From an uncultured Bacilli bacterium (lineage in GTDB: Bacteria > Bacillota_I > Bacilli_A > RF39 > UBA660), in NCBI GenBank assembly GCA_910580135.1, contig CAJTXC010000001.1, positions 2,425 through 66,424 of the forward strand: DNA of 64,000 nucleotides, read 5' to 3'. Made by a program: the position numbers and the translations under genes. The notes below the pieces were generated by a model. The model did no database searches and was not told the DNA's origin. It saw only the letters and a program-made list of their open reading frames with translations. Shown here in pieces: positions 20,962 to 52,900 of the stretch (position 1 is its first letter; each line of letters starts with the position of its first letter).

Positions 20962-23900
20962 ATGATTTATAACAAAGGTGAAGAACATATGGATAATCCT
21001 ATTCCTGTAACTGAGGAAAATTTAGGATTTAACACTCCTTGGGAAGGTCATACTTCTAAAGAGATTGAAAGTTATGTATGTTCTGTTTTTGAAAAACTAT
21101 CTGAAAGTTCATCTGCACGATTTACTCTCACTCTTGTAGATGGAAATCTTATTAACTTTGTTGATGGAGTAGATAACATTGTATTCCGATATAAAGTTAA
21201 GTATGCTTCTTCTGAAGAAGTCTTTAATACGTATCGTTTGAGCATTACAGTTAATGGTCAGATTATTCAAGATGGTTATCAGTCTTCTTCTGAAGATGAA
21301 ATTCTAACATCTCCTAATCTTGCTCAGTATCTTAATTCTACAAATGAAAGTACTGTAATAGTTCGTATTCGTGCTTACGATTTGGATGAAAACAATAATG
21401 TAATTGCACAGTCGAGTAATACTATTACATTTAACCGAGTAGTTGGTACACTTGCCCTTCAAGGTATGGTTTTTGGTGCAGTCAATCCTAATGGTATTAG
21501 ATATACTGCTGATTTTGTTCCAACTACTGCTGCTCCTGTAGCTTATCTTAGGTATAAAGTAACTCAACCTGATGGTAGTCTTGTTACATTCACAGACTCT
21601 TCTACGGGGGAGGTAAATAACTATAATGAAATTCCTGTTAGTGCTTCTGGTACTGTAACTGTTCCACTACCAGATAATCTGAGTGATGGTGTTCATACTA
21701 TAACTGCTAAATTAATTGTAGGTAAAACTCAATCTGTTGAAGGTATTTCTACTAACACAATAGTTTACAATTTCCTTACTGTTTCAGATACTGTTGCAGA
21801 TGGAACTCCATTTATTATTGTGGATAGTGTAGATAGTCCTGTTCAGAATGATTATACTCCTGTTAGATATCTTGTTTATATTAAAGGAAAAGAAGCAAGT
21901 TATACTACTCCTCTTCTTTTACAAGATTATTTTAATAATAAGTATAATACTCAAGCTATTAAGAATGTAAAAAATGGAACTATTTATACTTGGAATTATT
22001 TTGTTCCTAATCTTACATCTCTTGGAATGATTACTTGCCAACTCCGTTTTGCTCTTCCTAAAATGCAAAATGGACAAATTGTTTATAATAATAATGGTGA
22101 ACCTCAAATAGACGGTACAGCAGGCACATATAAATCTATTTCTTTTACACCTAAACCAAGTACTATTCCTTGGAATCAAATGGAAGATACATTCCATCTT
22201 TCTGTTAGAAATAAAAGTAATGACGATTATGACGTTGGTACTCTTAAAGATAATGGATATGAAATGGAATTTGAAGATTTCCAATGGAATACTTCTGGTA
22301 GTGGTTATACTCAATTAACTATTGATGGTGTTACATCTAATGTTCTTAAATTTGTAGGTAACAGTAAAGCTACTATTAAAAATTTCTTCCCGTTCTACGA
22401 TACTACTCCTTATAATGCTGCAAATTCTGTAGGTGGTGGTATTCTTGCTACAGGTCGTACTCTTAAGATTAAGTTTGCTGTATCTAATGTTTCTAATGCT
22501 GAAGCTAAAGTTATAGATTGTTATGATGATAGTAATCCTGGTATGGGTTTCTATATTACTGGTAACGGTATGTATCTTAAGTTTGTAGAAGAACTTGTAA
22601 GTAAACCTGAAGAGTATCAAACTGCATCTGGTCATAACGATAGACGTTTTAGTGAAAATAAATGTATTGAACTTTGTATTACTATTCAACCATATTGGGG
22701 TGCTGGTAATATAGAGTCTGCTCATGAAGTTCGATACTATATTAATGGTGAGCTTGCTGGTTTCCGTAAGATTGCTGCTACAACGTCTTTGAGTCAAGTT
22801 GTACCTAAAACTATATCATTTGGAGGTAAAGGTGCTATCTTGTATCTTTATGAAGTTAAATATAAGAATAAATGTATTACTCCTTTTGAAGTTCTTCAAG
22901 AATATGGTATGAGTCAAGATAGTTCTAAGGCTCTTAACAACTTCTATGAAAAGAATAGTTTTTATACTCTTCGCACTAATTCAAATGGGGAAACTTATCC
23001 TGAAATTACTCTTAAGGATGCAATTAACTATGGTAAATATTTAGCAAGCAAAGGAGTAACTGATTTTGCTGTTTTTGTTACTACTAATGATTGTAACGCT
23101 GAACGATATACTGCTAATGGTGGTAAAGCTAACACAAAAGAGTATGCTCAAGATGCTGAATCTTTATATATTTATAGATTCCGTCAAAATGAAAAAGGAG
23201 AAGGTGAAATTGACCCTGATATGACTTTCTATATCGAAGGTCATGATGATAATGAAGAACAAACTTGGTATCTAGGTGAAGAAGATGGTGAAACTAAAGG
23301 CGCTCTTCGTTTTCGCCGTCAAGGTACATCAACAGCTGATGGTACTAAAGGTAATATTCGTTGGGATGTTCGTGCAACTTGTCTTCTTCATAAGTTTAAT
23401 CCTGCTACTCAGAGATTCTTTGATGAATATACTAAGATTAAGAAAAAATGGGAAGGATTTTATATTCCTGATAAAAATGCTATTCCTTGTTTCCTTGTAA
23501 CAGCTAAAAAGAATGTTAATGAGTCTACTCATACTCGTAACGTTCCTACAGCTAAATGGTTTGAAGCTTGTTCTCGTGCTCTTGCTAAAGCAGATGAGAA
23601 ATATGAGGATATTCTTACTCCTCCTCAAAGGGCTGAATTAAAGAGTATTCAAACTGCTTATCCTAGTCTTAGTCGTTCACAGCAGATTGACAGAATTAAG
23701 ACTCGTCAAGTTATTGACGGTATTACTTCTTTAGGATTTAGAATTCAATATTCTAAAGACGCTGCTGGTAAATATCTTCCTGTTACTGACCCAACTCTTT
23801 CTACTCTTGAATGTGAATTTATAGGTCAATATGATTTGACTACTGATAAAAAGAATATGAAAATATTTGGTTTTGGTGGTCATATTGAACATAATTCAGA

Positions 23901-25827
23901 CGGTAGTTTTGATTGGGTTAAAGATACAGACGATGAAGATTTCTCTTTAGAGTATGGTAATAATACCAATCCTCTGTCTTCTTTTAAGAGTCAAAACTGG
24001 GGAACAGCTGCTGCTCGTAATGATTTTGAATATAGGTATCCTGAAGATATAGATACAATTCCTGGTCTTGGAGCTTCAAGTACTGAAACTCCTAGTATCG
24101 GACTTGAACTTGATGGTCCTATGCAAGCTCTTTATGATTTTGTTGCTACTTGTGACCCTAATAAAGAAGAAGGTATTTATTATAGGAATGGTGGTAAATA
24201 TACTGGTCAACTTCCTTTCTTAAATGGTGGACAAAATCTAATTGACCCATTTACTAAAAATCCTATTAGTCTTGGAAGTTCAGCAGATGATACTGTTGCT
24301 AACCGTAAGATTAAATTTTATAATGAACTTAAATATTACGGAGTAGTTAATCAACTTCTTATTTATTATATTGGAACTGTAGATACTCCTCTTGGTGTTG
24401 ACCAAGAAGCTAAGAATATCTTTATGGGTCGATATGGTGATAGAAAACTTTCAAGTGGAGAAATAGTTGCTGGTGATGTTATTCAAGTTAGTAATAATAT
24501 AAATAAGCTTCTTCGTATTCTTGGTTACGACTATGATACTAACTGGCGACTTGATAATAATAATAACTTTAAGTTCCTTTATACAGTTCTTTATCAAGAC
24601 CATCTTTATGATGCTGGTGGTTCTGTTCTTTGGGATTTAATCAGAGAATGCTTTGCTACTGAGATTGCTGAAATGAAGAGTCGTCTTTATGGTACTCTAC
24701 TTTCTAAATCAGTAATTAACAATAACGGAGATATAACGAATGGTGTTCTTTATTATCTATTTACTAAACATATAGATAATTATAACTCTATTCAATATAA
24801 TGCTAACTCTGAATTCTGTTATACTTCCAAAGCAAGTGATTATCCTAAATCTCACGGTTCAGCTCGTGAAGATATTGAATGGTTTGTAGATGGTCGTCTG
24901 AGATTTGTATCTGGTCTTGATTTTAATCCTGATAAAAACAGTAATGATACAAGTTCAGACTTTGGTAAAGGACGTTTCTATGGAACTCCTACTCTGCCTG
25001 CTAACCTTGATGACGGTAATTACTACAATATGTTAGGATATACTAAAGATGAAATTGGTTCTAATGGTAGTCCTATAACTCCTGTAGTTAGTAAAGAAAA
25101 TAGATTTGCTGTTACTGTAACTGCATATGAACGTACTAATTTGGCATTTGCTAAAGGTCGTCCTGCAAGTACATTTAATAGTGTATTTATTAATGTAACT
25201 CCTACTGTAGTAAACGGTATTATAACAGGTTACACTCGTCCTGAAGTCACTCTTAAAGCTAAAGAATTTTATAATCCTGGCATTTCTGATGCTGCTGTTT
25301 ATCTTCATGGTTGTAAACAAATTAAGACTATTGTAGGTCTTGAGAAATGGTATCTTGAAACTATTAACTCTTGGGGTGATTTAACTAATGTTGAAGAACT
25401 TAATCTTGGTAGTCTTGATGAAATTACTCTTCCTGATGGTACAAAAGCAGCTTACAAAAATCCGAATTTAACTTCGCTTAACTTGGTTGCTGACGGAAAA
25501 CCTGTTATATTTGGGTCTTGTAAAAAGCTAAATCTTGCAGGTATTTCTAATATGACTCAAGTATCTCTTCTTGAATTTCCAGTTCTTGAAGTATTTGAAG
25601 GTCGTAATATGCCTGGTACTTCTGAAGTTGTACATCCTGTAGGAAATAGTCTTAGTGAAGCAAATTATGGAGATGGTCTTACTAAATGGGAAATAAGTAA
25701 TAAGCCAAATCTTGAAATTATTACTTTCCAAAGTATAGATGATATAAATACAATCAGTGTTACTCAATCTTCACAAACTGCTTCTGTTAAAGCAATTAAT
25801 ATGCTTATAGAACTTGTTAATAATTAA
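20962..25827 (+). CDS. very large tail fibre/host-interaction protein (1621 aa) with LamG/ConA-like and LRR-like regions
   Basis: GRTLKIKFAVSN...GMGFYITGNGMYLKF...YYINGELAGF resembles a LamG jelly-roll. The C-terminal LTNVEELNLGSL...NPNLTSLNL...CKKLNLAGISNM resembles leucine-rich repeats. Confidence 0.5.
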   Translation: MIYNKGEEHMDNPIPVTEENLGFNTPWEGHTSKEIESYVCSVFEKLSESSSARFTLTLVDGNLINFVDGVDNIVFRYKVKYASSEEVFNTYRLSITVNGQIIQDGYQSSSEDEILTSPNLAQYLNSTNESTVIVRIRAYDLDENNNVIAQSSNTITFNRVVGTLALQGMVFGAVNPNGIRYTADFVPTTAAPVAYLRYKVTQPDGSLVTFTDSSTGEVNNYNEIPVSASGTVTVPLPDNLSDGVHTITAKLIVGKTQSVEGISTNTIVYNFLTVSDTVADGTPFIIVDSVDSPVQNDYTPVRYLVYIKGKEASYTTPLLLQDYFNNKYNTQAIKNVKNGTIYTWNYFVPNLTSLGMITCQLRFALPKMQNGQIVYNNNGEPQIDGTAGTYKSISFTPKPSTIPWNQMEDTFHLSVRNKSNDDYDVGTLKDNGYEMEFEDFQWNTSGSGYTQLTIDGVTSNVLKFVGNSKATIKNFFPFYDTTPYNAANSVGGGILATGRTLKIKFAVSNVSNAEAKVIDCYDDSNPGMGFYITGNGMYLKFVEELVSKPEEYQTASGHNDRRFSENKCIELCITIQPYWGAGNIESAHEVRYYINGELAGFRKIAATTSLSQVVPKTISFGGKGAILYLYEVKYKNKCITPFEVLQEYGMSQDSSKALNNFYEKNSFYTLRTNSNGETYPEITLKDAINYGKYLASKGVTDFAVFVTTNDCNAERYTANGGKANTKEYAQDAESLYIYRFRQNEKGEGEIDPDMTFYIEGHDDNEEQTWYLGEEDGETKGALRFRRQGTSTADGTKGNIRWDVRATCLLHKFNPATQRFFDEYTKIKKKWEGFYIPDKNAIPCFLVTAKKNVNESTHTRNVPTAKWFEACSRALAKADEKYEDILTPPQRAELKSIQTAYPSLSRSQQIDRIKTRQVIDGITSLGFRIQYSKDAAGKYLPVTDPTLSTLECEFIGQYDLTTDKKNMKIFGFGGHIEHNSDGSFDWVKDTDDEDFSLEYGNNTNPLSSFKSQNWGTAAARNDFEYRYPEDIDTIPGLGASSTETPSIGLELDGPMQALYDFVATCDPNKEEGIYYRNGGKYTGQLPFLNGGQNLIDPFTKNPISLGSSADDTVANRKIKFYNELKYYGVVNQLLIYYIGTVDTPLGVDQEAKNIFMGRYGDRKLSSGEIVAGDVIQVSNNINKLLRILGYDYDTNWRLDNNNNFKFLYTVLYQDHLYDAGGSVLWDLIRECFATEIAEMKSRLYGTLLSKSVINNNGDITNGVLYYLFTKHIDNYNSIQYNANSEFCYTSKASDYPKSHGSAREDIEWFVDGRLRFVSGLDFNPDKNSNDTSSDFGKGRFYGTPTLPANLDDGNYYNMLGYTKDEIGSNGSPITPVVSKENRFAVTVTAYERTNLAFAKGRPASTFNSVFINVTPTVVNGIITGYTRPEVTLKAKEFYNPGISDAAVYLHGCKQIKTIVGLEKWYLETINSWGDLTNVEELNLGSLDEITLPDGTKAAYKNPNLTSLNLVADGKPVIFGSCKKLNLAGISNMTQVSLLEFPVLEVFEGRNMPGTSEVVHPVGNSLSEANYGDGLTKWEISNKPNLEIITFQSIDDINTISVTQSSQTASVKAINMLIELVNN
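21601..21612 (+). repeat. iterated motif, exact TCTACGGGGGAG
   Basis: Context gactcTTCTACGGGGGAGGTAAAT, inside ORF 20962-25827, read as SSTGEVN. Confidence 0.9.
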
Positions 25828-25834
25828 TCAAAAC

Positions 25835-28090
25835 ATGGCATTACAAAACTTTACTTGGAACAATGGGACTCAAAGTAGTCCTATTGTTCTATCCTTTGAA
25901 CAAATTGCAGCTCTCTCTGCTGCTGGTAAAAATCCTGATATTACTACAGATATTGGCGGATTTATTACAACGAATAGTCATAAAATTCAAAAGTTTCTTA
26001 AACTTTCTCTTGAAGAGCAATTTCCTAAACTTACGGTTGTTGTCGATGAAGAACTTGCTGATACTTTTGGAGTTAATGTTAGTAATCCTAATATAAATGA
26101 AGGAAGTTCTATCCCTATTAATATAACTGGAGATTCTGGTATTACTCATGATTATCTTCTTTGGAATCTTAATTATAAGAGTGTAACAATAGATGGAGAT
26201 ATATCTGAAGCTATTATCAAATCTCGTATTCATATTACTAATGGACAAATAGTAGTAGATGACCCTCAAGAAAATGCTAGTTGGCAAGTTGTACTTGAGA
26301 TTACTGCTTATCCTAGTTATTATGAAGGAACTAATCTTTCTTCTATTCCTGAATCTAGTCGTCCTAGCTTTACTGTAGCTATAAATGCTAAAGCTATTAC
26401 AGCAATTACTGCTACAACTAAAGAAGAAATTCCTATTAATTCTAGTGTAGAAATAAAAGTAACTCCTACTCCTTCTGATTCTACTAAACTTAAAGGAGCA
26501 ACTTACACTTATACTACGAGCACTCCTAATACAGTGTTTTGTGCTGGTGATTATATTAGAACTCAAGGAAATTCAGGTGCAGGTGTTGTTACTGTAAATC
26601 TTAATACCTGTGGTGGTAAAGTTAAACTTAATACTACAGTTAATTTTACAGTATATGATTTACGTCCTATGACTTTCATTATAGACCAAAGGTATCTTTC
26701 TAATCTTAGTGACCCTGTTGGAATGGTATCTGAAAACTGTATTCTTAATGCAGATGGTAGTCTTACTAGTATTTCTAATACAGGTAAAGATGGTAATCCT
26801 AACAACAATACTCTTACTTGGATTAGGCAAAATACTCATGCTTTTGTTAGTCGCTATATGGGTTTTTCTGGTCTTAGACTTAAACAACTTAGCGATACTA
26901 CAAGAAAGAAATTTGCTGATGGTACAAGTTCTGTAGACTATATATCTAACGAAAGCGGAGAATTTGACGTTTTCCTTAAATTTGGTAGTGATATTTTCTA
27001 TAAAACCGAAGCATTTACTCCTCAAGGACAAGCTAATCCTAATGTAGATTATGTTGCTGTTACTATAGCAAAAGAACTTTCTGAAGGAGAAAGTGAAGCT
27101 AATTGGGTTAAATGGAGTCAATATAAACTTATTGGAGTTTATCCTGCTTGTCAAATTGGTAATAAACTTTATAGTCTATCAGGAAAACGTTCTGTAAATA
27201 ATATTTCACAAACTAATAGTATAGCTAGAGCTAAAGCTCGTGGAACTAATTTTAATATTTGTGATTATGATATGACTAAATTATTTGCTTTCTTATTCTA
27301 TGGATATTATAGTTCTTTAGGATGTCAGCAAATATGCGGTTATGGTACTTCTAATCTTGTAAATAATGTTTATTATCCTAAGATTACAGGTGGTACTGAC
27401 GAACTTGCTATGACAGATACTGATACCACTACTGGTAATGGTGCTGCTACTCCTGATTCTGACCAAATTAAAGCAGGTACTGGTTCTGATATTAAATCGG
27501 TTAACTTCTGGGGTCTTGAAAAATGTTGGGGAGATTTATCTGAGTGGATTTCTAATCTTAGAGTTATGGAAGCTGCTCGTCCTGAAAGTAACAATACTCC
27601 AAATGTATCTGATTATATAGCTGATTATCTTGATGAGTATATTAGTATAACTATTACTAAACAAGATGGTACAGATGTAACTTATACTTCTAAAGCAGAT
27701 TTCCTTGCAGCTTATGATAATCCTGCTTCTCGATTCTTAGCTATTACTGATAAGAACAATGTAATTGTTCGAGCTATTGATGTAGGTAAAACTGCTAATA
27801 GTGAAGGATATATTAAAAAGATGATTTTTGGTAAGCACGCGGATATTATTGCAAAAGAGTATAATAATGGCGCTGGAGCTGATACTGGTTTTTGTGATTA
27901 TGGTCGCGTTAGTTCTGCTGGTCGTGTTGCGCTTCGGTCTGATTATTCCGCTAGTCCTGCTGGTGGGGTTGGTTGTCTCCATGCTTGGGCTGCGGCTGGT
28001 AGTGCTTATTCGTATGTCGGTGCTCGTTTGCTTTATGACGGAGATGAGAATACTGTTTATATTATAAACGACGCAACAGAAACTCTTTAA
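25835..28090 (+). CDS. DGR target protein: tail fibre/receptor-binding protein with C-terminal variable region
   Basis: The track ORF starts at TTG 25814, and ATG 25835 (MALQNF) is the more likely start. The last ~65 aa (GRVSSAGRVALRSDYSASPAGGVGCLHAWAAAGSAYSYVGARLLY) are encoded by the VR. The invariant C, W and R spacing is typical of C-type-lectin-fold DGR targets. Confidence 0.8.
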   Translation: MALQNFTWNNGTQSSPIVLSFEQIAALSAAGKNPDITTDIGGFITTNSHKIQKFLKLSLEEQFPKLTVVVDEELADTFGVNVSNPNINEGSSIPINITGDSGITHDYLLWNLNYKSVTIDGDISEAIIKSRIHITNGQIVVDDPQENASWQVVLEITAYPSYYEGTNLSSIPESSRPSFTVAINAKAITAITATTKEEIPINSSVEIKVTPTPSDSTKLKGATYTYTTSTPNTVFCAGDYIRTQGNSGAGVVTVNLNTCGGKVKLNTTVNFTVYDLRPMTFIIDQRYLSNLSDPVGMVSENCILNADGSLTSISNTGKDGNPNNNTLTWIRQNTHAFVSRYMGFSGLRLKQLSDTTRKKFADGTSSVDYISNESGEFDVFLKFGSDIFYKTEAFTPQGQANPNVDYVAVTIAKELSEGESEANWVKWSQYKLIGVYPACQIGNKLYSLSGKRSVNNISQTNSIARAKARGTNFNICDYDMTKLFAFLFYGYYSSLGCQQICGYGTSNLVNNVYYPKITGGTDELAMTDTDTTTGNGAATPDSDQIKAGTGSDIKSVNFWGLEKCWGDLSEWISNLRVMEAARPESNNTPNVSDYIADYLDEYISITITKQDGTDVTYTSKADFLAAYDNPASRFLAITDKNNVIVRAIDVGKTANSEGYIKKMIFGKHADIIAKEYNNGAGADTGFCDYGRVSSAGRVALRSDYSASPAGGVGCLHAWAAAGSAYSYVGARLLYDGDENTVYIINDATETL
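27900..28034 (+). repeat. DGR variable region (VR)
   Basis: 135 nt align without gaps to 28182-28316. All 35 mismatches are at TR adenines. Confidence 0.9.
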
Positions 28091-28181
28091 GATATAATTA
28101 ATAAAGGTAAGATTGGTCTATATAATGATAGGTATTTCTAACACAAGATACGAGGTAATGGACTTGCTTAGTTAAAAAGAG

Positions 28182-28316
28182 ATAGTAACGTTAATTCTAC
28201 TAGTAATGTTGCACATCAGTCTAATAATTCCACTAATCCTAATAGTGGAGTTAGTTGTCTCAATACTTGGAATACAGCTAGTAATACTAATTCGAATATC
28301 AGTACTCGTTTACTTT
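28182..28316 (+). repeat. DGR template region (TR)
   Basis: A non-coding copy of the VR starts 91 nt after the target stop codon. It has 44 adenines. Read in the target frame it contains 12 AAY codons. Confidence 0.9.
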
Positions 28317-28317
28317 C

Positions 28318-28332
28318 CTGTTGGTTCAACAG
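28318..28332 (+). other. short hairpin immediately 3' of TR
   Basis: ctgttg gtt caacag: a 6-bp perfect stem with a 3-nt loop. Confidence 0.4.
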
Positions 28333-28488
28333 AACGTTGATATAATTATTGTAGTAAACATAATCTTACCTCACCTCTTGGTGGAAAATAAAGTATGGGT
28401 TAGTAAGTATAGTAAAAGTTCACTTGAAACTGATGAAGTTAGAAAAGAACTTTCAGGTAAAGAAAGCCGGTGACCAACAGAAATTAAA

Positions 28489-29742
28489 ATGAAGATTTAT
28501 AGAAATCTTTGGGATAAAATTGTAACCTTTGAAAACTTTAAGCTTGCTTATAAAAATGCTACTAAAGGTAAAAAGCATTATAAAGAAGTTAAGATTATTG
28601 AAAGAAAAGGTGTTAACCGTTATCTTCGTAAACTACTTGAAGAAGTAAAAGGTAAAACTTATAAAGTTTCTGCTTACGATATATTTACTCGTTTTACTGG
28701 AGAAAAGTATAGAGAGATATATCGTCTGCCAATGAAAGATAGAATTGTTCAACACGCTCTTATGGTTATCATAGAGCCTATCTTTAGAGAAACTTTTATT
28801 AAAGATACTTATTCTTCAATTAAAGGTAGAGGGATACATAATGGTTTAAAAGCTATTAAAAGAATTGTTAAATCTCGCAAGTATAGATATTATCTTAAGA
28901 TTGATGTACATAAATGTTATCCGTCTCTTGATAAAGAAATATTAAAAGCTAAACTTGCTCGTAAATTTCATGATAATGATTTACTTTGGTTATTATTTAC
29001 TATTATAGATAGTTGCGATAAAGGAGTTCCTATTGGCAATTATACTTCTCAATATTTTAATAACTTTTATTTTAGTGATTTAGCACATTACTTAAAAGAA
29101 GAGTTAGGTTTAGATACTATTTGGTATTGTGATGATTTAGTTGTCTTTGGTGATGATAAAGATAAACTCCGTGAAGTTTTAAATACTATTAATAGAAAAA
29201 TGACATTACTTAATGTTCGTATCAAAGAAAACTATCAAATATATAATATAGAAATTCGTAGTGTGGATATGCTTGGTTATAAAACAAGACCTGATTATAT
29301 TCTTATTAGAAAGAATACTAAAAAGCGTTTTATAGCTAAAGTTTCCAAAATGGATTTTAATAATCTTACTAAGAAAGATATAAATACACTTGGTAGTTAT
29401 TGGGGAATATTTTGTCATGCTGATTGTAGACATCTTTGGTTTAAATATACTGGTGTGAAAACATTTAAAGAACTTAATATTAACGTTCATAAACGAGATT
29501 TTGTTAAAGATTTACTTGGAGTCAAACTTGAAATTAAAAGTTGTATGTGCTTTAGTAAACGTGGTCAAGAATGGCTAAGAATTGAATGTTGTTATAATAT
29601 AAATGGAGAACAACATGATAATGTTTATATAAGTACAAGTGCTGAAAAACTTGTTGAAGCAGGTAAACAACTTAATGCAAGTATGTTTCCTTTTGAAACT
29701 AAAATAATCGTTGATGATAAAGGTTTTTATGAATTTACTTAA
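28489..29742 (+). CDS. DGR-type reverse transcriptase
   Basis: IGNYTSQ is encoded at 29032-29052 (the [LIV]GxxxSQ hallmark of DGR RTs). YCDD is encoded at 29125-29136 (YxDD catalytic box). The N-terminus resembles DGR/group-II RTs (NLWDKIVTFENFKLAYKNATKGKK). Confidence 0.85.
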   Translation: MKIYRNLWDKIVTFENFKLAYKNATKGKKHYKEVKIIERKGVNRYLRKLLEEVKGKTYKVSAYDIFTRFTGEKYREIYRLPMKDRIVQHALMVIIEPIFRETFIKDTYSSIKGRGIHNGLKAIKRIVKSRKYRYYLKIDVHKCYPSLDKEILKAKLARKFHDNDLLWLLFTIIDSCDKGVPIGNYTSQYFNNFYFSDLAHYLKEELGLDTIWYCDDLVVFGDDKDKLREVLNTINRKMTLLNVRIKENYQIYNIEIRSVDMLGYKTRPDYILIRKNTKKRFIAKVSKMDFNNLTKKDINTLGSYWGIFCHADCRHLWFKYTGVKTFKELNINVHKRDFVKDLLGVKLEIKSCMCFSKRGQEWLRIECCYNINGEQHDNVYISTSAEKLVEAGKQLNASMFPFETKIIVDDKGFYEFT

Positions 29743-29754
29743 ATTGAAAATAAT

Positions 29755-30303
29755 ATGCGTTGGATAAATATTAAAAGTGAAGAACTTGTTGGACTTGAAT
29801 GTATTAATCCGAAAAACGATAAATATATTCTTAGACTATCTCCTAATTCTAAGAATATAGTTCAAGATGAACAAGATAGTAATGATACAAGGATTGTGTC
29901 AATAATTGTTAATAATAAGCCGTCAATAAATGATATTAAAAAACATTTGTTATATTTGCAAAAAGAATATGATAAAACTTCTGAAGTAGATTGTTTTATA
30001 CTTAATGGTAAAAAAGTTTGGATAGATAAAAATACTCGTATTGGACTTTTCAAACTTCTTGATATAGAAAAACAATCTAATACAGAAACTACTATTCTTT
30101 GGTTTAATACTACATCTATAGAAATAGAAGTTGATAAAGCTATTACACTTCTTACTACTGTAGAAAAATATGCTAAACAATGTTATGATAATACGCAAAA
30201 ACATTATGCTGAAATAAATCAACTTAGTTCTATAGAAGCTTGTTTACAATATGATATTACCGCAGGTTATCCTGCTATTTTAAATATTACATTAACAGAT
30301 TAA
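29755..30303 (+). CDS. hypothetical protein (182 aa) downstream of RT
   Basis: ATG ORF 12 nt after the RT stop. No motif recognised. Confidence 0.55.
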   Translation: MRWINIKSEELVGLECINPKNDKYILRLSPNSKNIVQDEQDSNDTRIVSIIVNNKPSINDIKKHLLYLQKEYDKTSEVDCFILNGKKVWIDKNTRIGLFKLLDIEKQSNTETTILWFNTTSIEIEVDKAITLLTTVEKYAKQCYDNTQKHYAEINQLSSIEACLQYDITAGYPAILNITLTD

Positions 30304-37509: not shown

Positions 37510-40500
37510 ATGGCACAGATAATTCCTAAATTAAATCTTAATAAAACTCCTTCTATAATAGAATCTAATAGTTTAGTATTTGCTAAAAATATCAGACTTG
37601 ATATTGATGGTTCTATTCATAAAGATTATGGGGTTTTCCCAATGAGTATTCATAAGGGAAAAAATACAGATAATCTTGTTAATTATAAAACTATTCTTAA
37701 TAGGATTATTTCTGATATAGAAGAAAGTACAAAAGGAACAGAAACTCCTGAAGATTATATTCTTCTTAGTTATGTTCATCTACAATGGATTTCTGGTAAA
37801 GAAATAAAAGATGAAGATAATAATGTAATTGCCAGTAAAGGAACTCATAAAATTGTTGGTATTATATCTAACAGTAATGAGTTCTATATCTTTATTAATG
37901 GTAATTGTGTTAGAGGTACTGATTCAAATGGTAAAGATATAACAGAAGTATATAACTTTATTATTTGTTATGACGAAAAAGAAGATAGATTTTATCCTTG
38001 TAACTGTAATTGGAATTGGTCTGGTGGAACAATAACTGGTTGTGTTATAAATAATCTTCTTGGAGAAAAGATTCTAAATATTGGAGAAAAAGATGCTACA
38101 ACATTAGTTCCTTTAAAGTGTATAAATTTAAATACATCTACTATAGGTGATGATGAAAGAATTTATACACAAACTTCTAATATTCCTATTACTAATCTTA
38201 ACTTTATAGGTTCTTTTAATTATGTTATTCCTAATGGAGTATATCAATTCTTTGTAAGATATAAAATTAGAGATAATTTTTATACTGATTGGTTTCCTGC
38301 AAGTAAAGAATTATTTGCTGGTAATAAGAATATAAATAATACAAGTTTTGGTACTGTTAAATTTGTAAATACTCATAGAGATTCTGATAATAGTTTTAAG
38401 TTTTCTGTTGAACATCTTTTCATTAATCAAAAATATAATTATCAAAGTTTCCAAATAGGTTTCATTATTTCACATGATGATGCTATAATGGCTCGTGCTT
38501 GGAAACATTTTGATTTTAATGTAAATACTATTAATTTTGATTATAATGCAAGAGATGCTTATGAAATAGAAGTTATAGATTTACTTAAGAGTGCTTATCA
38601 ACTTTATGATGTAGGTAATATTACAAGTTTTAAAAATAGACTTTATATAGCTAATTATAAAGAAACTGATTTTAATGAAGATTTACAAGATAAAGCAAAC
38701 GAAATAAGAATTGAAATTACTGACCAAAGTGCTACTAGCGGTTATGATGGTTATCCCATTATAGAACGTACTCTTAATGGAAAAACTGTTATTGCTGGTC
38801 TTAAAATAGGAGAAGAAGAACTTTCTTTTAGTGGTTCTAATGGTATAATAGATAAACTTTTAAGATTAAAAAATAATTATAATGATGAAAGTGTTAAAGA
38901 TGCTATAATAGATGCTATAGGTAGTAATTCAAGTAATGGTTATAGATGTGGTGCTAAACAATGGTCTATTCAAATTAGTGGTAATAAGCAATCTTTAACT
39001 GGTGCTCAAAATCAGTTTAGATATAGTCATTCAGGAAATGATTATAGTGGCTTTATTTTTCAAATAGCTATTCAGAATATAAAAGTAGGAGGTAGTTATA
39101 TTAATACTTTTACTATAGATGCTATTCTTTCTGCTATTTATAGTAAAACTAGATATTTAAATGAAAGTTGCATTTTCATAAATAATTCTGGAGCTGAAGA
39201 TTATCAAGTAGATATTGAAATAATAAGAAAATGTTCTTATACTCATAAACATTGGGTACCTAATGGAATGAAACCTTACGACCCAAGTTTAGGTGATGAT
39301 TATATAGATGTAAATCCAGGTGGTGATAATTTAGGAAGACCAAGTGATACTATTATTGGTGGAAGCGGTGGTCATTACGAATATACTACAGTAAATTCTA
39401 CATATACTCAAACTATTTCTCTTAGATTATGGGGAGATAGAAGTAAATATAAATCTACAGATTCTAATCTTCTTTTAGGATATACTACTCTTATTCCTTA
39501 TCAAAAATATAAATTTTATATTCATTATGTTAAACAAAATGGTGAAATAACTAATGGATATTATTGCAATGGTAGAACTGGAGGAATAAAAACTGTTCCT
39601 TATAAAAGTGCTGTTGATTCTGTTATATTTCCTAAATTTACTAATATTAATCTTCCTAAAGGATATGTAGCTTGTTTCTTTAGTATAGTTCATGTTGAAA
39701 ACACTGTTGCTACAGTATACGACATTAATACTGATAATACATACGGAGAAGCAAGTTGTATGGATATTAATGTTGGTCTTATGCCAGGAAGTGATAACAT
39801 GACTATTAAACAAGGTTTTACTTCAGCCTCTGGTGGTATAGGTGACATAGGTGGCGTAATAATAAATCCTGATTTTCCTATAATAAAAGACCCTATTATA
39901 ACTGCTAGTGAAAATAATGAAGAAGAACAATCTGATATAACACCCACTTTACCCCCAATATCAACAACTCAAACTGAAATTAAAACAAATAGTGCTAAAT
40001 ATTATTATAGTAGTGATACATCTAATATAAGATATTTTGGTGCTGACGGTATTATTCAGTTTGATAAAGATTCTAATATAGTTAGCGGAAAAGTAGCTTA
40101 TCTTGTTAATGATTATACTATATCAGATGCAGAAGATACACAATTAACTAAATGTACTCCATTTATAAATCCTCTTACTCTTTCAAAAGAGAATAATGTT
40201 ACAGTTTATTCTTCTTTTGATAATATGAATTTATTAGGATTTATTTGTGCTATAAATCCTTTGCATAGAGAAAGAACTATTAAATATTATACTGATGGTT
40301 CTTCTGTTTATCTTAAAAAAAATATAGAAGAAGCTGAAGATGGTACTGGAGCATATTTTTCTCTTGTTGAACTTAAAAATCATTTATTAGATGCTTCAAC
40401 TTATGATGAGAAACTTACAGCTTTAAGTATCATAAACACAGATATAGAATATATTTATTCTAATTATAACTTAAATTATATGGGTCTTAATGAAGACCCT

Positions 40501-41973
40501 GTTGAAACATATAAAACTTATTATAATAATACTTCAGAGCAAACTACAGATAATTCTACTCCTACAGGAAGTGTAGTTCTTAGACTTTTTAAGAGTCTTA
40601 TGATGAGTTCTACTTATATGCTTCCTGCAATGTATAAAACTTATACAAAGAAAACTTATAGTATTTATAGAAGAAATGAAGTTACAGAATTTAATAATAC
40701 TATTCGAGCAAGTAAACTTGAAGGTGACGAATCTTCTATAAATATTTATAAATTTGAACCAAATGACTATTATAATGTGCCAACTAATAGAGGTTTAATT
40801 ATTAATCTCATATCAGTTGGTGATGCTATTTTAGTTCATACAGAAGATAGTATGTTTAGATTTTCTGGTAGTAATACAATTCAATCTTCTGATGGTGAAA
40901 TTCAACCTGCTGAAAATAATGTATTTGACACAGGTGTTTCTGAAGTTTTTGGTAGTGATTTTGGTTTTGCCGGACTTCAATATAAAACAGACCATATAGT
41001 TACTGAAAATGGCTATATCTTCTTTGATAGAGATTCTCGTATAGTTTATATGTATTCTGGTCAAGGTCAAATTGTCAAACTTAGCGATTCTATTGAAAAA
41101 CTTTTTAGACATAGACCTATTGAAAGTATTAGATTTGCTAATGATTATTATAATAATCGTTTCTTTATGTCTATTTTGTTTTATGAAGACTATACTGCTA
41201 CTGAGAACGGTAAGCCTGTAATTAAACAAAGATATTATCCTGTTACTCTTTCATTTAATATTACAGAAAACGTTAGGTCTTTTGTTAGTCTACATGATTT
41301 TTATTATGGTTATGCTTTTAATACTAAGACTAAATGCTATTTCTTAGCAGATGATATGCAAGATATTTGTACTATAGATAAAGAATATAAAGGCTGTTAT
41401 AGTAAACTTGAACTTTATAACGATAAACTTTATCTACAAAAAAGAGAAACGCAGATAATTAAGTTAGTAGATACAGATACTGCTGGAGCAGCTATTGTTA
41501 ATTATATTATTAAATTATATGATTCTATATTAGATATTATAGATAACAATAATTACGAAACAGTTAAAACATTAAATTCAATAAATTGGTGTGGAAATAA
41601 AGTAACTTCTGAATTTAGAGATATAGCTCAAAATAATGAAGTTACTCTCAATATGGTTGAAGAAGTAAATGATGTAGTTCCTTGTAAATACATAAGAATT
41701 TATTCTGATACTTGTATGAGCAATCTTTTACCTTGTACTTCAAGGTCTAATGATAAATCTATTTCTGCATTAGACTACACTAAATATCCTTTTTATAATC
41801 AAGGTACTTGGACTTTTAATTATTTTAGGAATATTCTTAATTCTAAAAATAATAAAACAAGATATTCTGGAGATAATAATAGTCTTATAGAAGGTAAATA
41901 TTTTGTAGTAAGATTTGTTTTCGATAGTGATTTTAAACTTGAAACTTTATATTTAAATTATAACGCAAAATGA
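37510..41973 (+). CDS. very large tail-associated protein (1487 aa), function unknown
   Basis: Long ATG ORF in the tail module with ATGA overlap to the next gene. Confidence 0.6.
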   Translation: MAQIIPKLNLNKTPSIIESNSLVFAKNIRLDIDGSIHKDYGVFPMSIHKGKNTDNLVNYKTILNRIISDIEESTKGTETPEDYILLSYVHLQWISGKEIKDEDNNVIASKGTHKIVGIISNSNEFYIFINGNCVRGTDSNGKDITEVYNFIICYDEKEDRFYPCNCNWNWSGGTITGCVINNLLGEKILNIGEKDATTLVPLKCINLNTSTIGDDERIYTQTSNIPITNLNFIGSFNYVIPNGVYQFFVRYKIRDNFYTDWFPASKELFAGNKNINNTSFGTVKFVNTHRDSDNSFKFSVEHLFINQKYNYQSFQIGFIISHDDAIMARAWKHFDFNVNTINFDYNARDAYEIEVIDLLKSAYQLYDVGNITSFKNRLYIANYKETDFNEDLQDKANEIRIEITDQSATSGYDGYPIIERTLNGKTVIAGLKIGEEELSFSGSNGIIDKLLRLKNNYNDESVKDAIIDAIGSNSSNGYRCGAKQWSIQISGNKQSLTGAQNQFRYSHSGNDYSGFIFQIAIQNIKVGGSYINTFTIDAILSAIYSKTRYLNESCIFINNSGAEDYQVDIEIIRKCSYTHKHWVPNGMKPYDPSLGDDYIDVNPGGDNLGRPSDTIIGGSGGHYEYTTVNSTYTQTISLRLWGDRSKYKSTDSNLLLGYTTLIPYQKYKFYIHYVKQNGEITNGYYCNGRTGGIKTVPYKSAVDSVIFPKFTNINLPKGYVACFFSIVHVENTVATVYDINTDNTYGEASCMDINVGLMPGSDNMTIKQGFTSASGGIGDIGGVIINPDFPIIKDPIITASENNEEEQSDITPTLPPISTTQTEIKTNSAKYYYSSDTSNIRYFGADGIIQFDKDSNIVSGKVAYLVNDYTISDAEDTQLTKCTPFINPLTLSKENNVTVYSSFDNMNLLGFICAINPLHRERTIKYYTDGSSVYLKKNIEEAEDGTGAYFSLVELKNHLLDASTYDEKLTALSIINTDIEYIYSNYNLNYMGLNEDPVETYKTYYNNTSEQTTDNSTPTGSVVLRLFKSLMMSSTYMLPAMYKTYTKKTYSIYRRNEVTEFNNTIRASKLEGDESSINIYKFEPNDYYNVPTNRGLIINLISVGDAILVHTEDSMFRFSGSNTIQSSDGEIQPAENNVFDTGVSEVFGSDFGFAGLQYKTDHIVTENGYIFFDRDSRIVYMYSGQGQIVKLSDSIEKLFRHRPIESIRFANDYYNNRFFMSILFYEDYTATENGKPVIKQRYYPVTLSFNITENVRSFVSLHDFYYGYAFNTKTKCYFLADDMQDICTIDKEYKGCYSKLELYNDKLYLQKRETQIIKLVDTDTAGAAIVNYIIKLYDSILDIIDNNNYETVKTLNSINWCGNKVTSEFRDIAQNNEVTLNMVEEVNDVVPCKYIRIYSDTCMSNLLPCTSRSNDKSISALDYTKYPFYNQGTWTFNYFRNILNSKNNKTRYSGDNNSLIEGKYFVVRFVFDSDFKLETLYLNYNAK

Positions 41974-46928: not shown

Positions 46929-49900
46929 ATGGATATTCAAGCTATTTTTAATGCAGGAGGAACTGTTATTAAAAATCCTAATTATAAAAAAAGAAAAAAG
47001 AATACTCAACCAGAGTATATAACAGTTTCTGATTTAGATTCAGGAATTGCTCCTGATGGAAGTATTGTAGCAGATATAGCGTACAAAGCTGCTGCAAGTG
47101 GAAATCAAGATATATTAGGAAGAAATGGAGAATTAGATAAATATATAGAACATGGTCTTACTCCAAATGGTTGGGAAGATTTAGATGTTCAACTTGCAGA
47201 ACAACAAGGTAATTGGACTAAATTAGGTAACGCTCTTGCTCAAACTCTTGTATCTGAATTAGCTCTTGGAACAGTTAAAGGTTTCAGTGATTTAGGAGAT
47301 TTAATAGGACAAGCTGTTGGACTAAGTGACGGTGATTATTCAAATCCTGTTAGTCAATATCTTGAAGAAAAACAAGAAGAATTTCGTAATTTTGCTCCTA
47401 TATATACAAGACCTGGTGTTAACATAAGTAATGGAGGATTACTTGATGCAGGTTGGTGGACTAGTAATATACCAAGTATTATTAGTTCATTAACTCTTCT
47501 TATTCCAAGTACTGGTATTACAAAAGGTTTATCAGCTATAGGAAAAGCAGCTAATGTAGGTGCTCGTACAAGAAACGCTATACGTGCTGTTAGTGGTGTT
47601 AATCGTAAAATGGTACAAGCTGAACGTCTTAGAGAAGCAGGCAGAACTACTGAAGAAATTGCTGAACTTACTAGACTTAATGGAGTTCAAAAGTTTCTAA
47701 CAAGTGCTAGTACAGCTAAACAAACTTCTCTTTTCTTAGAAAATGCTACAACTGCTGCTCTTAGTAGAGCAATGGAGAATTATCAAGAAGCTCGTCAAAC
47801 ATATAATGATATGTACGCTGAAGCTTCAGAATATCTTAAAGATGATAATAATTATCAGACATTTCTTCAGCAAAATAGTGAATCTCTTAGGCAAGCAGGT
47901 GTTGATGTAAATGATAGAGATGCTGTAGCTAAATATATTTCTTCTTCTGCTGCCGATAGAACCTTTCAAACTGACTGGTTTAATGTTAGTTGGGATGTTA
48001 TTCAAATGTATGGTCTTAGAAATGCTTGGAAAGGACTTAGAAATGCTAAAGATACTCCTTCTGCTGTAAGACGTGCTGAATTAGATGCTCGTAAATATTT
48101 TGGTAAAAAGCCTGAAGAAATAGCTAAACTTAAAGCTCAACGTTCTTTTGGTGAAAAAGCACGAGAATGGGCTAGTGATAGACTTTATGGTTCTAAACTT
48201 ATTGTTGGTTTTGAATTAAGTGAAGGTGCTGAAGAAGCACTTAACTATATTGCTACAGAAGAAGGTATGCGATTTGGTCGTGTTCTTCTTGGAACAGAAC
48301 AAGGAGAAAATAAAGGTGTATGGAGTAACATACTTAATGGATTTGATGGTCGTTTGAAATCTTATCTTCAAGCTCCAGAACTTTATGATGCTGCTTTTTG
48401 GGGTGTTCTTGGTGGTGTAGTTTTTCAAGCTGGTGGTAGTTTTATTAATCGTGTAGGTCAAAAGTTTAATAAATCTGAAGCTGACAAAAATGCTGCAAGT
48501 AAACTCCCGTGGTATCAACTTGACCAACTTCCTGAAAATCAAAGACGTATAGCAGAAATAGAAGCTCGTTCTACTGATTTTGCTAATTACAAATCTCAAC
48601 TTGATAAAATTAATCAAGGAATTGATGTTTATAATTCTACAGAGAATAATGAAGTAAGATTTAATTCTGAAGAAGAAGCTAATGTAGCAAGAGAGAAACT
48701 TAAAGATGAATTTATTGCTAGTATGACTCTTCGTGCAATGAATTCTGGTAATTATGATATGCTTAAAGCTTTTCTTCAAGATGAAAATGTTCGTAAAAAT
48801 TTAATTGAAAGTGGTGTTTTTGGACATGAAAGTGAAAATGGTAAAACATCTGCTGAAATAGAACAAGAAGCTAAAGAATACGTTGATTCTGCTGTTAGAC
48901 GTATGGATGAAATTGCTGATATGTATGAGCAAGAACTTACAGCAGTCGATTACGCTTCTTCTCGTATTGGCAAAGATATGTTAGCCGAATATATGCAAAT
49001 TATAGCTAACAATAATGTTAATACACAACTTGCTCTTAGACAAAATCAACTTTCACTTGCAGGAACTAATGCTAGAATTGCTCAATTAGAAGAACAATTT
49101 AGAGATAATCTTGACCCTAGTATTAATCATGCAAATAATATTAAAGTAGGTCTTATTTCTTCTGAATTAGGTAAACTTTATGCTGAGAAAAAGAAACTTA
49201 CTGAACAGCCTAATAGTCTTAGCAAAACTATAGCACTCGAAAACATTAATAAAAAGATTGAAACTCTTGAAAATGAACTTTCAGATAGTGAACTTGTTTT
49301 TGCTACTTCTTTAGCTCTTCGTTATGTAAAGAAAGAAGATGGTTCTTATGCACAAGAAGATACTGAAGATTATTTTAGATACAGAGATAATCAAATAATT
49401 AATCATACAGAAGATAATGTAGGTTTAACTTTTGACGATACTTTAATAAGTGTTGGACTTTCTCGTCGTGCTAGAACTGTTCTTAGTGATGTAGCAATGC
49501 AAGAATATAAAGTTCTTGAACAAGATGCTGGTAGTAGTTTTGCTACTCTTCGTCAAATTAGTCCAGAACTTAACGATTTGTATGCTGTTCGTGCTGCTAC
49601 AGAATTATCTTCTAAAATGCTTAATTCTGAACTTGTTCGCACTGTAGATGAAGTAAGAGATTATTCTGCTATGCTTCATAATACAATGAGTGAAGCACGT
49701 ATTACTGCAATTGAACAATCCAATAAAACTATACTTGATTTATATAAGAAATATGGTAGAGATATTGAGTTCTATGTAACTGATGATTATAGCAGTAAAA
49801 ATGAAGTACTTAGAAAACTTTCTGAAAGTGAACGTAAAAATCTTGATGATGCTCTTAAAGTTTTAGCACTTACTAAATCTTATAATCGTTCTCTTGGTTT

Positions 49901-52900
49901 ACAACTTGAACTTATGTTTAGAAATCATGATGCAATAGTTGCTAGTCAAGATAGTGCTTTTATAGATGAAGAAAGTGAGGAAAACTCCACAAATTTAGAA
50001 GGCGATACAGACACTATTAACCCAGACCTTGACAATTACACAGGAACAACCGAACAAGACGACACAGAGCAAGTAATCGGGCAAAATGACGATATTACGC
50101 AGCCGAATGACCCCCAAAATATCTCAAACCGAACTCCTGCTTATTATGCTAAATTTTGGTTTCCAAAAGGTGTTCTTTCAAGTAGTAGACATAGTAGCAC
50201 AGATAACGGTGGAGCAGCAGTTTACGATAATGGAGATGGGACATTTACTTTAGATGTTCGTGATGATAAAAAAGCTCTTAACGATTCTCGTTTCTTTGCT
50301 AATGCTGATGAAGTAGATTTAACTCGTCCTTATGAAATAGTAGAAAAACCTATTCTTAAAAAGAATAAAAAAGGTAAACTTGAAGTTTATAAACAAGGTA
50401 GACTTGTTAATACTGATACATTAGAATATCAAGCTGCTCAACAAGCAGAAACTCAAGAAGAAGTTCAAGATGAAGTTCAGACTGAGGAAACTCAAGATGA
50501 AACAGTTGAACAACCTATTGAACATACTACTGAAGAAGAAGTTGAAGAAACTACTCAACCTGAGCAAGTAGAAGCTGACAACCCTTCTACGGGGGAGGTA
50601 GTTGCTGAAACTACTTCAGTTAATACAGAAAGTTCTGCTCCTGTTTCTGTTTATGATGAAGTTGTTCCAGATGAAGTTACTACAGAAGATGAAATTCGTA
50701 TGGCTAGTCTTGGAAGATTTCAAAAAGAATTTAAAGCTAATAATGATGTAGATTTAGATTCTATTGCTAGTGAAATCATAAACGAAGAAGTTAGAAAAGG
50801 TAGAGATAGACAAATGGTAGAAGCAGCTGTTAATAAATCTCTTTCTATTATTAAACGAGTAATAGAGCGTAAAAGAGGAAAAGCTGCTGATTCTGTTATG
50901 CAAAGTTCTGTTGATGAAGTTATTGTTCAATCAAGTATTGTAGAGCTTACAGCTAGAAATCCTTTTATTAAAGATTATACTGATGCTGTTAAGTCTATGA
51001 TAAATGAATTTTGTAAGGAAGTAGGTATAAATGAATATAATGGCAAAAAGTATATCAATCTTGAAGATTTACTTAGATATGTAAATACTATAACAAATGA
51101 TAGTCAAACTTCTAATATGATGTTTGACGCACTTAAAGTTTATCTTACTACAGACGAAGCTAAAAAAGAGTTTATAACAACTGATGAAACTCAGAATAGT
51201 GATACTCTTAAAAAGAATATAGCTAAGTCTGCTGCTCAACGTTATCAAGAAAGACTTTCTGATACTACTACACAACGAGTAGATATTTGGAGTCTTCGTA
51301 GAACTATGTCTTCTAATAAAGAACTTCAAGAATTTGAAGAAGCACTTGAGGCTATACAAAAAGGAGATAAACTTACTTATGTAAAAGAAGATAAAAGAAT
51401 TGTTCTTAAAGATTCTAAAGGTAGAATTGTCGGTACTTTAGCTATTCCAAGTATCAATCCTAAAACTGGTGCTTATGAAATAGCTAATGATGGTTGGAGA
51501 TATGATATTATTTCTCAAACTGGTGGTAATATAAATAGTAATCTTAAAACCCTATTTTCTCGTTGGCTTAATGAAGTGAATGATGCAAGTAAAGAACTTA
51601 ATGCTATTATTTACGAATTAGCATTTGAAAATGTAAGTCCTGAAAGAAAGAAAGAACTTCTTGTTAAATTTGCTAATAATTCTGAAATTAAATCTGCCAG
51701 AAATAATGGTTTTATAGATGCTGCTGCAACTAATGAAAAACTTATTAATGGTCTTGTTAAACTTTGGAGATACCAAAATTATACAGATGGAGATGTTACT
51801 ACTTTACGTAATAAACGTATTGATAGAACATTGAATACTTGGTTTAGCAAACTTCGTAATAGTTATGATGGAGTTAGTTATCTATTAAATGAAGAAAATG
51901 GAGAAATAGAAGTAACTAATATTAGTGATGGCGAGATAATTAGAGCTTCAGAAACTAATGGACAAGAAGCTGCTCTTCCTGTTAATAAGGCAATAGCTGG
52001 TGGTGTAAATCCTTCTATTCATAAATTAGCTATAGCCTCTAATAACGCTAATCATCTTACTGTTTCAGGTATGCCTGATATTCATTTTTCTGGTGTAGGT
52101 AAAATGAATACTTTTGTTCTTTTACCTAATAGAAACGGAAGTTATGAATATGTTCAAGCATATCCTGCTGATATTACTGATGATTATATAGGAAAAGATG
52201 CCAAAGAAATAATTAAAGCAATTCAAGATAGAGTAGAACAACTAATTGAAACTCATGTTAAACAACCTACTCAAGAAAGTTTCGAAGCTATTAAATCTTT
52301 TGTTAAATCTGTTCTTAGTAATCATAATGGTAATAGTAGTCTATTTTGGAATCTTACTCTTTTTGAACAAGGTAATACTTTTGGTATTTCTTTGAATAAA
52401 GATACTAAGATTGTTATAAATGCTACAACAGGGCAAGTAGATATTTCTAAATCAGAATATAAACCTAATAAAAAAGGATTTAGACAAATAAGGGTTGATT
52501 TAAATAGTAAACAAGCTAAAGATGCAATATCTGAACTATTAAATAATCTTAGATTTAATCTCAATCCTACTTATATAGCTTCAGATAATGCTACAAATAC
52601 TATTTTAAATGGTATAGTTAAACGTAGAAATGGTAAATTTGAAATAACTATTGGAGATAGGACTTGGTCATACGATAGTTTCAATGATTTTATACTTTCT
52701 AATAATCTTGTTAGACTTAATACCAAACCAAATGAAAGAGGAACAAGTAATTTTACTCCTCGTGGTAGTCGTAGTCAAAGTGGTAATCAAGTATTAGAAA
52801 TTAGAATTAATAGTACAACCACCTCCCCCGTAGAAAACCTCATAGAAACTCAATCTACTGAACCTGTTATTCCAGATACTAAAAACATTTCTATTCCTGA

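Follow-up and report, generated by a model that had tools for sequence, protein, structure and literature searches.

Diversity-generating retroelements (DGRs) have their prototype in Bordetella phage BPP-1, where the genes mtd and avd, a template repeat (TR) and the reverse transcriptase (RT) gene brt follow one another. Among crAss-like phages, the first DGR was described in 2020 in crAssphage LMMB, with the order target-variable repeat (VR)-TR-RT, no avd gene, an RT of lineage 3 and a VR of the C-type-lectin (CLec) class, CLec3-like (Morozova et al. 2020, PMC7290462), and later reports added elements from the epsilon and zeta crAss-like groups. Here we analyze a DNA stretch of 64,000 nucleotides, called the window (GenBank assembly GCA_910580135.1, contig CAJTXC010000001.1, positions 2,425 to 66,424 of the forward strand), which carries such a cassette at positions 25835-29742. 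The cassette is very probably a functional Avd-less DGR located in the tail-fibre module of a crAss-like phage close to Wotdevirus murinus, as indicated by its anatomy, by the folds of the RT and of the target, by an adenine-specific flow of information from TR to VR and by diversification at the population level. A previous interpretation, hereafter the sequence-only reading, left it undecided whether this lineage or target had been described. DGRs of crAss-like phages have been established since 2020 (PMC7290462), and the present one is a well-supported further example, in a lineage with no published DGR found: our literature search returned no DGR description for Obtuvirinae, and a 2026 catalogue of the mouse gut virome mentions crAss-like phages but not their DGRs. 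The four parts of the cassette are as follows.

25835..28090, + strand: target gene of the DGR, encoding a putative tail or receptor-binding protein of 751 aa
27900..28034, + strand: VR, residues 689-733 of the target, followed by 19 more codons and the stop
28182..28316, + strand: TR, non-coding, with 44 adenines, 24 of them in 12 AAY codons and 20 single
28489..29742, + strand: DGR reverse transcriptase, 417 aa, with IGNYTSQ at 29032-29052 and YCDD at 29125-29136

The closest described layout is that of LMMB (genus I, Carjivirus, Intestiviridae), which is likewise a crAss-like phage with the cassette at the 3′ end of the structural/tail block, the order target-VR-TR-RT on one strand, no avd and a target ending in a CLec-type domain. 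The two systems differ in their host phage, which belongs here to another subfamily and is Obtuvirinae-like, in their RTs, which are about 35% identical, and in their targets, a 486-aa tail-collar fibre in LMMB versus 751 aa here, with unrelated sequences (no tblastn match). More generally, the layout target-TR-RT without avd is that of DGR lineage 3 (PMC7290462), a likeness of layout alone. Hankyphage (Bacteroides phage p00), another phage of gut Bacteroidales, shares the order target-VR-TR-spacer RNA-RT, whereas it is a temperate transposable siphovirus with a GC-richer TR devoid of AG dinucleotides.

A scripted re-alignment reproduced the repeat pair that had been aligned by hand. VR and TR match without gaps over 135 nt and differ at 35 positions, all of which are adenines in TR (35/35; A>G 26, A>C 5 and A>T 4), while none of the 91 other positions differs and nine of the 44 TR adenines are unchanged in VR. 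The similarity drops abruptly at either edge of the two intervals. Read in the target frame, TR contains 12 AAY codons, in agreement with the earlier count, and only four third-position adenines. The differences are thus confined to template adenines, and these are concentrated at codon positions 1 and 2, as expected of a DGR and as in the adenine-specific TR-to-VR transfer of BPP-1; the TR of the latter is, however, made almost entirely of AAC codons. The intervals of 91 nt from the target stop codon to TR and of 172 nt from TR to the RT start were also confirmed. Scanning both strands of the window with TR, adenine positions being ignored, revealed a single VR. This VR has a GC content of 54%, compared with 33% in the remainder of the target gene and 31% in the genome.

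The 417-aa open reading frame (ORF) downstream of TR is a DGR-type RT with intact and conserved [ILV]GxxxSQ and YxDD boxes; both boxes lie where the sequence-only reading had placed them. It matches Pfam RVT_1 and PHROG 1423 ‘reverse transcriptase’, and the nearest solved relative, by structure as well as by sequence, is the BPP-1 enzyme bRT, which is by far the best match among PDB sequences (8ub7, E 9e-36, residues 2-312). In the alignment of the two enzymes, IGNYTSQ corresponds to IGSLTSQ and YCDD to YMDD, and the residues Arg74 and Ile181, which promote adenine mutagenesis in bRT (PMC7826257), have their equivalents in Arg75 and Ile182, both invariant in 42 homologs. The present RT is about 90 residues longer at the C terminus than bRT and carries there a conserved β-rich extension (residues ~335-417, ~29491-29739), for which no family or fold match was found; unexplained C-terminal extensions exist in about 20% of DGR RTs (Wu et al. 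2018, PMC5758913). The RT of Hankyphage is only 28% identical; its alignment, which covers residues 7-406 here, runs through the extension, which is therefore common to both enzymes. Among GenBank phages, the nearest RTs are 35-42% identical (cr52_1, cr10_1, LMMB and others). Loci with a closer RT (42-66% identity) are present in IMG/VR, and in 13 of 15 of them the RT gene is immediately preceded by a VR-TR pair arranged as here.

These data bear on the simplest alternative, namely that a direct repeat arisen by chance or by duplication happens to lie beside an unrelated retron or group II intron RT. The matches of the RT in NCBIfam, which are to group II intron RT and retron RT, would point in this direction, but all are sub-threshold, and the group II intron and retron RTs of the PDB match it at E 1e-8 or worse, far behind bRT. 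Moreover, 35 randomly placed mismatches would all fall on adenine columns with a probability of about (44/135)^35 = 9e-18. Together with the similarity of the RT to bRT in sequence and structure and with the layout recurring in 13 relatives, this refutes the alternative, to which we give practically no weight.

The target protein comprises an N-terminal part, immunoglobulin-like (Ig-like) β domains and a C-terminal C-type-lectin/FGE-like domain extending from about residue 430 to the end. The latter models as the CLec fold of TaqVP, Mtd and TvpA, in line with the fold that had been expected for this region, so that VR lies at the 3′ end of a gene whose product is predicted to display it on a CLec fold, as does the receptor-binding protein of BPP-1. 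The resemblance to TaqVP of Thermus aquaticus (PDB 5vf4) is limited to the fold: the identity is 17%, and TaqVP is a bacterial non-virion protein with neither the N-terminal nor the Ig-like domains. In the sequence-only reading, the variable peptide was credited with an invariant Cys/Trp/Arg framework typical of the fold. The fold is retained by modeling and the invariance of the Cys in GVGCL is not: this residue is Cys, Tyr or Phe in the population, because other strains have a TR with TAT at this codon and any of the three residues in their VRs. The designation as a tail-fibre gene is based on the position of the gene, a match to a PHROG annotated ‘tail protein’ and the Ig-like and CLec domains only. 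More than 300 homologs of the target exist; the best 120 listed are all full-length, and many of them are on contigs of 90-105 kb.

Comparison of public assemblies reveals how the cassette varies in nature. Assemblies of the same phage are available in Logan, ENA and NCBI, and 57 index blocks of public assemblies list a 417-aa RT of identical sequence. We compared the window with a set of related loci, labeled L002 to L009. Over 13,254 nt, L002 differs from the window by eight bases, and all eight are inside VR. L003-L005 show 18-36 differences, 10-20 of which are in the 135-nt VR, giving a density of single-nucleotide polymorphisms 97-199 times that of the flanks. Overall, these near-identical genomes have 0-18 differences in 9-13 kb of flanking sequence versus 8-20 in VR. 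In the five of them (window and L002-L005), 28 VR columns vary, all being TR-adenine columns, and TR is identical. Variation restricted to TR-adenine sites, which had been proposed as an activity test, is thus observed across public assemblies, and eight further alleles are adenine-confined save for one mismatch, described below, non-canonical VR substitutions being rare in this phage. Similarly, no two of the 29 target proteins with at least 95% identity share a VR peptide, and each AAY position is occupied by 6-12 different residues. Since VR diversifies while TR stays constant, the element is active, or was so recently.

The more divergent loci L006-L009 give the direction of the transfer. 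Their TRs differ from that of the window at two or three positions: column 5 (T>C), column 76 (G>A, which converts TGT into TAT) and, in L008, column 24 (A>T). The changes at columns 5 and 24, to bases other than adenine, are mirrored in the cognate VRs, and column 76, where these TRs now have an adenine, reads A, T or G in the VRs. That the VRs of L006-L009 carry the non-adenine bases of their own TRs demonstrates a flow of information from TR to VR. The extent of conversion can also be followed. The alleles P0121, P0124 and P0136 differ solely in the 3′-most variable codons 723-728, which fits a partial conversion anchored at the 3′ end of TR; the population data are in this respect compatible with the 3′-anchored conversion of BPP-1. 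The differences between the window and L002 form two patches in VR, columns 6-13 (27905-27912) and 102-117 (28001-28016), separated by some 20 variable adenine columns that are identical. The 3′ patch is consistent with partial retrohoming; to explain the 5′ patch, a second event or recombination among alleles has to be assumed.

Two observations on individual loci should be added. At column 64, the VR of L007 (4566-4700) has a non-adenine mismatch, G>T, which turns AGT into GTT (Val); Met716, Val717 and Asp690 in a few protein alleles likewise require non-adenine changes. In L008, which has 95.5% nucleotide identity over the region, the RT gene (L008:5135-6406) has TAG instead of TGG at the Trp codon directly before YCDD (~29122 of the window), which breaks the ORF into pieces of 217 and 180 aa. 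The VR of L008 is diversified nonetheless. This TAG could be due to recent inactivation of the RT, to an assembly error or to amber read-through; amber suppression in RT genes has been reported for zeta crAss-like phages (PMC12386605).

The spacer between TR and RT appears to contain a conserved RNA structure, revealed by comparative analysis only.

28318..28326, + strand: 5′ arm of the spacer-closing helix, CTGTTGGTT, starting 2 nt after TR
28367..28449, + strand: putative structured RNA resembling Rfam RT-17/RT-18, with a conserved hairpin CACC-TCTT-GGTG at 28372-28383
28472..28480, + strand: 3′ arm of the spacer-closing helix, GACCAACAG, ending 8 nt before the RT start codon

The two arms of the closing helix, 9 nt each, pair with one another, and in relatives the pairing is kept with a changed sequence: CTGTTGATT/AATCAACAG, TGTTGAAAT/ATTTCAACA, CTGTTTACT/AGTAAACAG and CTTTGTGT/ACACAAAG. 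The summed score of this helix is 187, whereas 500 shuffles averaged 134 and reached 162 at most. In the hairpin, two of the four pairs covary across 10 sequences around an invariant CCTCTTGG core, and the pattern CC-N2-CC-TCTT-GG-N2 is nearly invariant across 10-12 spacers. In contrast to this, the predicted fold of the whole TR-spacer region gave no signal relative to shuffles (z = -1.26). The Rfam model RT-17 (RF03020) matches the spacer over its full length at 28.6-28.7 bits (E 0.0007-0.003), below its gathering score of 40.4, and RT-18 likewise matches 28367-28449 over the full model length below threshold. Sub-threshold RT-17 matches are also found in the spacers of LMMB, L017 and L020, and the homologous spacer of L022 passes the threshold with 41.1 bits. 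The spacer of Hankyphage belongs to a different family, RT-3 (146 bits), and BPP-1 has a structured TR-RT spacer. Weinberg and colleagues reportedly linked the Rfam RT motifs to DGRs in 2017, a link supported here solely by the position of the motifs adjoining TRs. By analogy, the spacer RNA likely recruits the RT and positions the priming site. A 50-aa ORF overlapping this conserved RNA (28321-28473) has no family match and was considered but rejected.

Several points weigh against a functional DGR and need to be set beside this evidence. BPP-1 has avd between mtd and TR, a GC-rich initiation of mutagenic homing (IMH) site and a downstream hairpin, all three of which we failed to find here. 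Searches of the neighboring ORFs with Pfam, NCBIfam and PHROGs gave no Avd or HRDC gene, and the best match of BPP-1 Avd in a six-frame translation of the window has an E value of 1.9. Since bRT needs Avd, the present RT would have to work alone or with its own C-terminal domain, and the β-rich extension is a candidate stand-in for Avd. The absence of Avd does not exclude membership among DGRs, as the elements of lineage 3 and of LMMB also lack it (PMC7290462); the cassette, which had been termed complete, is so for VR, TR and an RT of the Avd-less type, but not as regards an accessory gene. No IMH/IMH* pair and no GC-rich hairpin 3′ of VR were identified: the homology stops at 28034/28316 without a diverged IMH-like tail, and the only element found 3′ of VR is a 7-bp AT-rich palindrome (28055-28069), the fold being no more stable than that of shuffled sequence. 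These elements are poorly defined outside BPP-1. In LMMB, an identical IMH/IMH* and two non-adenine substitutions have been reported, whereas the window has no recognizable IMH and no non-adenine mismatch. In addition, the RT-17 match in the window is sub-threshold, L007 provides one non-adenine mismatch and, as L008 has TGG>TAG immediately before YCDD, the RT can be lost. Finally, the evidence for activity comes from a comparison of consensus assemblies, which shows diversification on the timescale of strain divergence and gives no rate.

The last two points lead to the possibility of a relic, in which the cassette was active in the past but retrohoming has ceased, the present VR alleles being only passed on and reassorted through homologous recombination among co-circulating phages. 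Besides the use of consensus assemblies and the nonsense codon of L008, such a history could account for the two separate VR patches of the window and L002, as possible recombination, and alpha crAss-like phages often carry incomplete cassettes (PMC7290462). It is nevertheless highly improbable in view of the intact RT ORF with its identical sequence in 57 index blocks, the excess of VR over flank differences, the unique VRs of all 29 close target proteins and the propagation of non-adenine TR changes to VR within the species. Moreover, the synonymous sites of VR bear the footprint of a DGR and not the codon bias of the gene, as detailed below.

Template adenines fall into two classes in the alleles of this DGR. 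Across nine DNA alleles of the phage, TR adenines preceding G appear as G in VR in 81/81 cases and those preceding C in 71/81, while adenines preceding A or T give all four bases. The corresponding count of G in relatives is 118 of 131. NAG adenines are mostly G in LMMB as well (7/9), and in cr52_1 (6/7); those of NAC in the VR of BPP-1 have no G bias. It is because single TR adenines appear as G that VR forms a 54% GC island in a 33% GC gene. For bRT, misincorporation of dC is known to predominate, the base 3′ of the adenine matters and the total misincorporation is about 30-50%, and in unselected spectra of Bacteroides DGRs the adenine is retained most often. We tentatively propose, as a possibility somewhat short of an even chance, that the crAss-associated RT clade uses, as an intrinsic and context-dependent property of its enzymes, a two-tier code in which adenines of AA dinucleotides are randomized and single ones are almost always copied as though they were G, above all when G or C follows. 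The RT would then insert dC opposite single adenines, and the AT-rich TR would act as a compressed template, with Gly, Ala and Arg scaffold codons fixed in advance and only the AAY positions left to be diversified.

The same pattern could result from selection at the protein level, with unbiased mutagenesis being filtered for a Gly/Ala/Arg scaffold rather than an RT property producing G. Indeed, most of these sites are AGT>GGT, ACT>GCT or CAG>CGG, changes to plausible scaffold residues; Gly, Ala or Arg is present there in 27-29 of the 29 alleles, and adenine is often retained in the DGRs of BPP-1 and Bacteroides. We consider this unlikely, however, because G is equally the outcome at four-fold-degenerate third positions, in 27/27 cases in the nine alleles and 13/16 in relatives, in a gene whose remaining four-fold codons end in G in only 7 of 310 cases (GCG 1 versus GCA 12, GGG 1 versus GGA 21, TTG 0 versus TTA 7). 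In addition, some 13 sites with about 20-30% G each would, by our reckoning, make viable cDNAs vanishingly rare. Another explanation is that host mismatch repair acts on the cDNA:VR heteroduplex, through which retrohoming is thought to pass, so that the resident G is kept at single mismatches and clustered AA mismatches escape. Oligonucleotide recombineering has shown single mismatches to be better substrates of MutS than clustered ones. This explanation appears quite improbable to us. Isolated non-adenine TR changes do reach VR, and TR adenines at these sites are kept across RTs 52-66% identical, which is unexpected if they are never read out. Furthermore, MutS acts in an all-or-nothing manner on Bacteroides DGR heteroduplexes (bioRxiv 10.1101/2024.11.15.621889), which argues against patchy repair as the cause of the G bias. 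If the two-tier code is true, it would be far stronger and more deterministic than the context dependence measured for BPP-1 bRT.

A working model of the Avd-less DGR can be drawn by analogy with BPP-1, from which transcription of a TR-spacer RNA, self-priming from the spacer, the integration route and a receptor-binding role of the target are carried over. One transcript would span TR and the structured, RT-17-like spacer, closed by the helix that joins the first bases after TR to bases just 5′ of the RT start codon, and this RNA would be bound by the RT encoded immediately downstream. The enzyme would copy TR from its 3′ end, reading U, C and G faithfully and misincorporating opposite A. The cDNA would then replace the whole of VR or a 3′-anchored part of it, TR staying intact as the master copy. 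Up to 45 codons could be rewritten in this way on the ligand-binding face of the C-terminal CLec domain: the 12 AAY codons would provide broad, stop-free amino-acid diversity at 12 positions, and the approximately 20 single adenines would be converted almost uniformly to G, restoring Gly, Ala and Arg scaffold codons. The phage would probably profit from this by retargeting its receptor binding quickly when the host surface changes.

The sequences of the virion genes place the window in a crAss-like phage (Crassvirales) that is Intestiviridae/Obtuvirinae-like and close to Wotdevirus murinus. The large terminase, portal and major head proteins match crAss PHROGs (E 1e-113 to 1e-138). Comparison of the major capsid protein gives 94.5% identity with Wotdevirus murinus (crAssphage ctcc615; Intestiviridae, Obtuvirinae; obtained from mouse tissue), 89% with the pig phage cr271_1 and 67% with crAss002, and the gene order of the window agrees with MH552500. 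The crAss-like virion module invoked by the sequence-only reading is thereby borne out. Wotdevirus murinus itself has neither this RT nor this target, and at the place of the cassette it has a 658-aa fibre-like gene with 29% identity to target residues 350-613. GenBank phages gave no megablast match to 25800-29800, and the exact 38-nt TR pattern is absent from IMG/VR.

The genes flanking the cassette help to delimit what was exchanged. Directly after the RT, a 182-aa ORF (29755-30303) is 43% identical to a DUF4376 protein of Wotdevirus murinus, a phage without a DGR, and was on this account rejected as a DGR accessory gene. It matches weakly a tail-fibre PHROG, and its Wotdevirus homolog follows the fibre gene; it is probably a fibre-associated backbone gene, which would put RT and TR between the fibre gene and its partner. 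Just upstream of the target, a 1621-aa ORF (20962-25827) has no Pfam or PHROG match, and its counterpart was not recognized in the annotated gene list of Wotdevirus murinus, with which no direct comparison was made. Between these close relatives, the entire fibre region (~20.9-29.7 kb) seems to have been swapped. Elsewhere in the window, two large ORFs, 37510-41973 (1487 aa) and 46929-53894 (2321 aa), gave no PHROG hit at E 1e-5, and ARAGORN found no tRNA gene in the 64 kb.

The combination of an Avd-less RT carrying a C-terminal β domain with a near-deterministic A-to-G outcome at single adenines offers testable hypotheses on how template context programs DGR RTs, a question relevant to the engineering of DGRs for targeted mutagenesis. 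For the phages themselves, the cassette adds an intact, diversifying DGR to an Obtuvirinae-like lineage whose closest named relative is from mouse. As this relative lacks the cassette, a comparison with it reveals which part of the tail-fibre region gave way to the DGR module. Since the same phage is present in many public samples with a different VR in each, it constitutes a convenient natural system for studying the diversification of receptor binding in crAss-like phages, possibly in a tractable animal gut.

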